From: Psilocybe cubensis
Taxonomy: Eukaryota
Assembly (NCBI GenBank): GCA_017499595.2
Contig: CM039007.1
Span: 1,116,001 to 1,180,000 of the forward strand
DNA: 64,000 nucleotides
Direction: 5' to 3'
Below the pieces are notes generated by a model that did not search any database, was not told where the DNA came from, and saw only the letters and a program-made list of their open reading frames with translations. Below, piece by piece: positions 20,556 through 20,758 of the stretch (position 1 is the stretch's first letter; each line of letters starts with the position of its first letter). The translations under genes and the position numbers were made by a program.

Positions 20556-20758
20556 CTAGTAGCAAAGTGCTAGACGACGAGCTTCAATGTCTTCAGCATC
20601 ACAGTCCACAATTTCCGCTGCACAAAATAAGTTTTAATTTCTGTGGGGAATATTGTAGACGGAAACATACTATGACCTGCCACAGGTGCAGAGTTTGCCA
20701 TCATGGCGAATACCAAGGCAATGGATGCAAGTTTGCAAAAAATACGAACTGGATACAT
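20556..20758 (-). CDS. 49-aa secreted peptide, candidate RiPP precursor: MYPVRIFCKLASIALVFAMMANSAPVAGHTEIVDCDAEDIEARRLALCY
   Basis: Exon 1 is 20758-20671, then a 53-nt intron GTATGT...TGCAG (20670-20618), then exon 2 at 20617-20556. Signal peptide with a likely ANS/AP cleavage, acidic spacer and dibasic RR. TATTTAA lies about 50 nt upstream. Confidence 0.75.

Follow-up and report, generated by a model that had tools for sequence, protein, structure and literature searches.

A conserved two-exon gene beside UstYa genes in Psilocybe cubensis is a candidate for the missing peptide substrate of mushroom UstYa clusters

A 64-kb stretch of Psilocybe cubensis DNA (GCA_017499595.2, CM039007.1:1,116,001-1,180,000; hereafter the window, whose positions are used as coordinates throughout) carries on its minus strand a small gene for a 49-residue peptide that is the best candidate so far for the missing peptide substrate of mushroom UstYa clusters. 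The gene starts with an ATG at 20758, and its spliced coding sequence of 150 nucleotides (nt) consists of 49 codons and a TAG. It is very probably a real gene, one of a conserved family of two-exon genes that encode secreted peptides of 45-49 residues. That the peptide is a substrate of the adjacent UstYa enzymes is probable, and if it is, the product may be the C-terminal LALC-x peptide, an assignment that we hold tentatively and with somewhat less than even confidence. Judged by its sequence, the peptide would be a non-repeat, single-core relative of the precursors of dikaritins, which are ustiloxin-type peptides made by the ribosome and modified after translation (RiPPs). DUF3328/UstYa is described as the class-defining enzyme of dikaritins (PMC12048977), and dikaritin precursors are reported to have an endoplasmic reticulum (ER) signal and Kex2 sites and to be located at an average distance of three genes from DUF3328 genes (PMC12048977, PMC7329392).

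A preliminary description of this DNA had proposed a spliced 49-residue model with a 53-nt GTATGT...CAG intron, a junction at 20671/20617 and an RR-LALCY end, all of which are borne out in the sequence. Exon 1 (20671-20758, minus strand, 88 nt) codes for a signal-peptide-like N-terminus in codons 1-23 (20690-20758) and then for a short Pro/Gly linker, and its last base opens split codon 30. The predicted intron, read from the sequence, is in phase 1 and covers 53 nt (20618-20670, minus strand, GTATGT...TGCAG). Exon 2 (20556-20617, minus strand, 62 nt including the TAG) reads in frame over 20559-20615 as EIVDCDAEDIEARRLALCY, in which an acidic Cys block (20583-20615, with Cys35 at 20601-20603) is followed by the dibasic pair RR (20574-20579) and by LALCY (20559-20573, with Cys48 at 20562-20564), directly before the TAG at 20556-20558. 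By heuristic criteria, residues 1-23 resemble a signal peptide, with R5 and K9, a hydrophobic core whose best 10-residue Kyte-Doolittle (KD) mean is 2.56, and A-N-S followed by A-P. The preliminary description had also noticed that the open reading frame (ORF) track runs through the intron into a different C-terminus; reading without splicing gives such an ORF of 62 amino acids (aa) at 20570-20758, and comparison of this unspliced ORF with the protein database gave no protein of 34-109 aa sharing words with it. An intron of 53 nt is typical here, because RNA-like contigs join GT..AG introns of 59 and 53 nt in the neighbouring gene at 25.4-26.0 kb. An alternative acceptor 30 nt into the intron (CCCCACAG) was rejected since an intron of 30 nt would fall short of the RNA-supported lengths of 53 and 59 nt and the resulting C-terminus is non-conserved.

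Homologues of the peptide occur in metagenome DNA retrieved with UstYa3, the UstYa gene directly downstream of the peptide gene, and five relatives of it (alignment A1). This retrieval yielded 54 loci with 284,320 nt, in 46 of which the DNA upstream of the UstYa match exceeds 700 nt. A tblastn search with the spliced product matched 15 of the 54 loci (L004-L018, E 1e-4 to 5e-3), in every case in the orientation of UstYa, and the peptide stop precedes the UstYa match by 386-466 nt. Among 16,273 six-frame pieces, an exon-2 profile gave E-values of 2.7e-17 to 2.1e-16 for the 15 loci and 5e-11 for the window, with the next best piece at 0.027. The 15 loci represent seven distinct variants, all of 45 codons, in which a signal-like exon 1 of 67 nt, an intron of 56 nt and an exon 2 of 71 nt follow each other. 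The relatives' intron (GT[GA]ACT...CAG) is likewise in phase 1 and splits the codon just before the conserved Glu, which is the same place as in the window, and their exon 2 has its stop directly after LALC-x. All 15 orthologues also have a second in-frame acceptor (TAG) 12 nt into exon 2, whose use would drop V-E-[NT]-V and keep the Cys block.

Beyond the metagenome loci, a profile of contiguous exon-2 pieces (A2) was searched against 1,835,955,588 representative proteins and gave a single match (E 2.4e-4), in which profile positions 12-35 correspond to residues 26-49, the C-terminal end of a 49-aa protein. This protein, P0006, is KAL7283429.1, a hypothetical protein of Trametes sanguinea that is the sole member of its cluster and is annotated as its own gene; it has a signal-like start, a KR dibasic site and the end ...EEVDCDAEDIMKRNDAGLALCL. 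As a query among proteins, P0006 recovered only itself, and an Atlas search with it reached no meaningful score (at best 0.77). Annotation by funannotate with transcript evidence is reported for a Trametes sanguinea genome (PMC12371009), but KAL7283429.1 could not be tied to that assembly (its locus-tag prefix gave 0 matches) and is not counted here as evidence of expression. The preliminary description had set beforehand, as a check, the occurrence beside DUF3328 genes elsewhere of a peptide of the type C-x(n)-E-x-R-R-x(3)-CY, here taken as C-x(n)-E-x-R-R-x(n)-C-aromatic. The outcome is positive in 15 of the 54 metagenome loci, and the same architecture is found in the one Trametes sanguinea protein.

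The family alignment comprises eight sequences from three lineages: the window, six relatives and P0006. The positions that do not vary across it are those of E-x-V-x-C-D-A-E-D, a single Arg in the dibasic pair and L-A-L-C. The acidic block has the consensus E-x-V-[DE]-C-D-A-E-D-[IMV], and both Cys are present in all eight sequences. Candidate Kex2 sites are provided by the dibasic pair, which is RR in the window and in 7/7 variants and KR in P0006; nothing separates it from LALC in the window, and four residues (DGAH or NDAG) do so elsewhere. The last residue is a variable hydrophobic one; Y is confined to the window, and the other sequences have F, V or L. At the other end of the protein, sequences begin with MYPV... 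in the window and with MQFK... or MIFY... in the relatives. Heuristic inspection of the window, the six relatives and P0006 gives positive residues within the first nine, best 10-residue KD means of 2.56-3.22 and small residues at -3/-1, and a signal-like hydrophobic N-terminus is retained in the three lineages despite low sequence identity. Each of the eight aligned proteins has one core, with one profile match per locus and no tandem repeats, as the preliminary description had anticipated for the window. The order of signal peptide, acidic spacer, dibasic site and short C-terminal core that had been read from the window also appears to hold in the relatives and in P0006.

The pattern of divergence is informative about coding. 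In the 21 pairwise comparisons of the seven variants, exon 1 diverges by 7.1% and exon 2 by 5.9%, both ungapped, compared with 16.9% for the intron, and the 200-nt flanks diverge by 14.7% and 10.8% with gaps. Of 17 aligned exon-2 codons of the window and L010, seven are identical, seven differ synonymously and three differ non-synonymously. On this comparison of sequences, the codon pattern is that of a translated sequence under purifying selection, not that of a conserved DNA motif; the seven synonymous differences likewise argue against a non-coding conserved motif as a variant of a chance origin. An intergenic start, an intron-like stretch and a stop could in principle fall together by chance, and the shortness of the ORF, the lack of coverage of the locus in the RNA-like runs and the lack of word-sharing proteins for the unspliced ORF would all suit such an accident. 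Conservation of frame, intron phase, stop position and amino-acid sequence in three lineages, with synonymous change, makes it extremely improbable. So does a shuffling control, in which the 26-residue mature part was shuffled 200 times and no shuffle scored as high in tblastn against the 54 loci as the weakest true match (best shuffle 23.9 bits; true scores at least 25.8 bits). A rule-based finder, designed post hoc, required a start resembling a signal peptide, no more than one canonical intron, [KR]R close to the end and a Cys among the last three residues. It returned only this peptide ORF from both strands of the 64-kb window, and the 15 orthologues with one unrelated antisense match from the 284,320 nt of loci. 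A looser finder, aimed at small genes in the vicinity of UstYa genes whose products combine a signal peptide and a dibasic site, gave 69 candidates, among which only this peptide family spans unrelated loci; the other candidates were rejected as an antisense artefact and probable UstYa first exons.

The association of the peptide with UstYa proteins is visible in its immediate surroundings. Three ORFs with the PF11807 domain lie within 3.3 kb of the peptide gene, and UstYa genes adjoin it in all 15 loci too. The directly downstream partner, UstYa3, occupies 19524-20336 on the minus strand (E 3.3e-15). The domain exons of UstYa2 (18927-19445, plus strand, E 9.4e-16) and UstYa1 (17455-17946, minus strand, E 2.4e-19) each encode both HxxHC motifs, which are HQMHC and HLHHC in the former and HSLHC and HVHHC in the latter. 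UstYa3 of the window has HHVRC and VANHC in their place and so departs from the two HxxHC motifs that mark a canonical oxidase. The type HxxRC plus [VLI]AxHC is found in the window, in L010:4001-4441, in L001:2817-3287, in P0001 and in all six rows of alignment A1, and this His-poor pattern, with two of the four motif histidines missing, is kept across seven distinct sequences. In the database, UstYa3 comes closest to hypothetical proteins from Hypholoma sublateritium, Crepidotus variabilis, Panaeolus papilionaceus and Arthromyces matolae (53-63% identity). Its ORF of 270 aa has about 60 extra residues between the N-terminal hydrophobic segment and the conserved domain when compared with homologues of 159-211 aa, which are likely an unrecognised in-frame intron or a lineage-specific insertion.

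Gene order, given in the orientation of the peptide gene, has changed around this pair. The window has orfB/A (the membrane-protein ORFs are treated below), the peptide gene, UstYa3, UstYa2 (reverse), UstYa1 and orfC (reverse). In L004-L018 the order is orfB/A, UstYa1 (51-54% identity to that of the window), orfC (reverse, about 30%), the peptide gene and UstYa3 (48-50%). A third arrangement, in L001-L003, consists of UstYa3 (62-64%), UstYa2 (reverse) and orfA/B (reverse). The pair of peptide gene and UstYa3 is thus intact between the window and L004-L018 while the remaining cluster is rearranged. In L009, no other sizeable gene occurs for 3.4 kb past the cluster, up to an ORF fragment that looks retroelement-like by eye (7992-8312, minus strand). 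With nothing else of size over that distance, the relatives' cluster consists of five genes, and the fragment suggests that it adjoins repeat-rich DNA.

The short distance between the paired genes raises the possibility that the peptide is a conserved upstream ORF (uORF) in the leader of the UstYa3 mRNA, where ribosome stalling on the nascent peptide would regulate translation of UstYa3. Only 219 nt separate the peptide stop from the UstYa3 ATG, with both ORFs on one strand, and conservation of the peptide is highest in its C-terminal part and in the position of its stop; a conserved C-terminus is typical of stalling peptides, as in arginine-attenuator-type uORFs. A stalling uORF needs no signal-like N-terminus, however, and this one is kept in three lineages despite sequence turnover. 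The 219-nt spacer (20337-20555, minus strand) from the peptide stop to the UstYa3 ATG contains CCAAT and a TATA-like element, identified by eye at consensus level, and TATA- and CCAAT-like elements of the same level lie between the two ORFs in L010 as well. With the annotation of the Trametes homologue as a separate gene, these observations make control by a uORF highly improbable. We consider equally remote, or slightly more so, a role of the peptide as a small lumenal partner of the His-poor UstYa3, for instance as a metal or thiol donor whose Cys and acidic block complement the missing histidines. The constancy of the HxxRC/xxxHC pattern in seven distinct UstYa3-type sequences, the invariable pairing of the peptide with the UstYa3 subtype and a possible resemblance of the invariant C-D-A-E-D to a metal-binding patch would fit such a partner. 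A processed product would account more readily than a cofactor for the dibasic processing site and for the hypervariable last residue, and the literature searched gave no precedent for a partner of this kind.

A substrate of the UstYa enzymes remains the preferred reading, and several observations weigh against it. The two RNA-like runs span 8 and 9 of 30 window bins and none within 16.9-22.6 kb, and so carry no information on expression of the cluster; five sequencing runs were considered, of which the three that contain the stretch behave as DNA and the two RNA-like ones (X4 and X5), which bear the same species label, share almost none of its words. The 15 positive loci are mutually close (seven variants, about 6-17% apart), come perhaps from one sampling campaign and amount to one independent lineage, and the Trametes sanguinea member contributes its protein sequence alone. 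Removal of a signal peptide and cleavage by Kex2 are predicted from sequence rules only. UstYa3, the constant partner, lacks two of the four motif histidines and may not be catalytic. Known UstYa macrocyclisations use Tyr ethers, and no aromatic residue is conserved in the core of the eight aligned sequences. UstYa proteins are also reported to serve non-ribosomal pathways, e.g., that of cyclochlorotine (PMC12048977), so a UstYa neighbour alone is no proof of a RiPP. Finally, and as the main negative result, the loci with the closest UstYa3 (L001-L003, 62-64% identity) yielded no peptide homologue within their 3.4-6.2 kb when searched with the profile, with regular expressions and by three-frame reading of the upstream regions, which would mean either that the adjacency of peptide and UstYa3 is not universal or that the gene lies off those contigs.

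Some of these points would be accommodated by a plain secreted, disulfide-looped peptide with a signalling or defence function, perhaps cleaved at its dibasic pair to give two chains joined by the disulfide, that is not modified by UstYa and lies next to it through co-regulation or shared history only. The two Cys never vary and flank the dibasic site, the core offers no conserved aromatic residue for a UstYa-type ether, and L001-L003 have a set of UstYa3, UstYa2 and orfA/B without the peptide. We nevertheless regard such a peptide as unlikely. Amid rearrangement, the peptide and UstYa3 have been kept as a same-strand pair (in the relatives, 386-466 nt from the peptide stop to the UstYa match; in the window, 219 nt to the ATG), and a plain secreted peptide would have no obvious reason to stay beside one UstYa subtype where the UstYa proteins themselves are only about 50% identical.

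If the peptide is a UstYa substrate, it would enter the ER, where lumenal UstYa-family oxidases would act on it. A Kex2-type protease, by the usual sequence rules, would then cut after the dibasic pair and release a single C-terminal core of 5-9 residues, LALCY in the window and xxxx-LALC-[F/V/L] in the other sequences. A disulfide, transient or permanent, may initially join the two invariant Cys and keep the core close to the acidic recognition block. The chemistry would probably centre on the invariant Cys and on Leu/Ala rather than on Tyr. The preliminary description had suggested a Tyr ether or a Cys-Tyr link, which is not supported for the family: a Tyr cross-link is unlikely as family chemistry because the Tyr is unique to the window and not conserved. 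Its alternative, a larger loop between Cys35 and Cys48, is compatible with the alignment, in which both residues are invariant in 8/8 sequences. A bolder proposal is that mushrooms harbour an unseen class of UstYa-dependent peptides with tiny, intron-split, single-core precursors, in which the His-poor UstYa3, its gene always placed just after that of the precursor, binds C-D-A-E-D as a recognition or scaffold subunit and canonical UstYa oxidases install a sulfur cross-link from Cys to Leu/Ala in LALC-x. We rate this combination as speculative and rather improbable; to our knowledge, a sulfur-based Cys-to-Leu/Ala cross-link is not known for the UstYa family. Complex prediction for the UstYa3 domain with residues 20-49 of P0006 gave no answer (score 0.00), which weighs neither way on binding.

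Comparison with known peptide systems places the family near the dikaritins with marked differences. From its sequence, it shares with classical dikaritin precursors the signal-like start, the dibasic site and the UstYa neighbours, and it lacks their tandem repeats and a conserved Tyr in the core. VicA, the precursor of victorin, is an ascomycete repeat protein with a Leu/Ala-rich core that has neither Tyr nor Cys, and UstYa homologues are present in its cluster. By description, an aliphatic Leu/Ala core associated with UstYa would be common to VicA and to the peptide family, and VicA differs in its repeats, its ascomycete host and its lack of Cys. Ustiloxin-type precursors of the Kex2-processed repeat protein (KEP) kind (UstA, PhomA and AprA), as described by Umemura 2020 (PMC7329392), resemble the family in that their N-terminus is like an ER signal, that an acidic stretch, a Kex2-type dibasic site and a short core are present, and that the gene belongs to a UstYa cluster. 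Unlike them, the present peptides are single-core proteins of 45-49 residues, with no conserved Tyr, two invariant Cys and the core at the extreme C-terminus, and they occur in Agaricomycetes with a UstYa partner that lacks two motif histidines. The lichen UstY clusters of Clan R1/R2 are similar in that they contain genes with signal peptides and Kex2 sites and no repeated precursor, as far as they are described (PMC12048977). A single core is only suggested for those Lecanoromycetes clusters in that account, whereas the Agaricomycetes peptides form a family with conserved motif, intron and position.

Among peptides of other fungal classes, the MSDIN precursors of amatoxins and phallotoxins in Agaricales are comparable as tiny single-core genes that annotation tends to miss (PMC10840396). 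Their specific features are a conserved MSDIN leader, the lack of a signal peptide, and cutting and cyclisation by prolyl oligopeptidase (PMC10840396), all of which are absent from the peptide family. Neither the window nor the relatives have an MSDIN leader, and their core is without flanking prolines. The family is likewise distinct from basidiomycete lipopeptide pheromones, which have a C-terminal CaaX box and no signal peptide, as its Cys occupies the penultimate position and its N-terminus is signal-like. The acalitide precursor AcaA is similar as a fungal ribosomal peptide with disulfides in its product that are presumably formed in the ER (PMC10840396). AcaA differs in its 81 aa, its head-to-tail cyclisation by a protease and the lack of UstYa, and it has no sequence similarity to the peptide family.

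Two further components of the cluster are small membrane proteins for which Pfam searches of orfA, orfB, orfC and the L010 homologue of orfA gave nothing usable. orfB/orfA (21310-22190, minus strand) has two exons and encodes a membrane-anchored protein with 34-53% identity to its counterparts in L001-L017, and it accompanies UstYa genes in all three cluster arrangements. In the protein atlas it lies near But2-C-terminal-domain proteins (score 0.96), a family found on 33% of the cluster members, which is a lead only. orfC (16931-17272, plus strand) encodes a small protein that crosses the membrane once and ends in a His-rich tail, and is a possible metal-handling partner. A homologue of about 30% identity gave tblastn matches in four of the 15 peptide-bearing loci (L004 and L013-L015) and is also present at L009:2550-2993 (minus strand).

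The whole block may vary between haplotypes or copies. In the DNA-like runs X1 and X2, one contig joins 16939 to 22218 and skips 5278 nt, an interval that precisely takes in orfC, all three UstYa genes and the peptide gene together with orfA/B. Similarity of this contig to the window is confined to 58 nt on one flank and about 94 nt on the opposite one, and no direct repeat was found flanking the 16939/22218 joint. The joint may represent a second haplotype in which the block is lacking or replaced, or a paralogous empty site. Farther out, two inverted and highly similar copies of a multi-exon gene (8436-11272, minus strand, and 28854-31624, plus strand), with a PF17667 fungal protein kinase domain and an upstream ORF, bracket the central 17.6 kb that contain the UstYa block. 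An ABC1 atypical kinase-like gene (exons at 32367-33924, minus strand, PF03109, E 1.6e-36 and 1.3e-23) provides ordinary housekeeping context.

UstYa genes of basidiomycetes have attracted attention in several settings. Pleurotus ostreatus is reported to have 16 UstYa genes, six of which are developmentally regulated (PMC8893723), and a study of Termitomyces states that a precursor "would need to be annotated" before UstYa clusters count as RiPP clusters (PMC11455885). Umemura found DUF3328 genes near 103 of 1680 (6.1%) repeat precursors of Basidiomycota and questioned whether cyclisation occurs there (PMC7329392). In the literature searched, which mostly excludes subscription journals, no precursor of a basidiomycete UstYa cluster and no description of the present motif were found, and a prior description is possible. 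In Agaricomycetes, many UstYa genes are flagged as "fungal-RiPP-like" by genome mining while their peptide substrates are missing. A non-repeat precursor of 45-49 codons, which is missed by repeat-based mining and by ordinary gene callers, would explain part of this gap; the profile search of 1.84 billion representative proteins gave only one annotated member. The compact block of five to six genes is amenable to direct expression and analysis, and the conserved motif provides a search handle for further members of the family in mushroom genomes.

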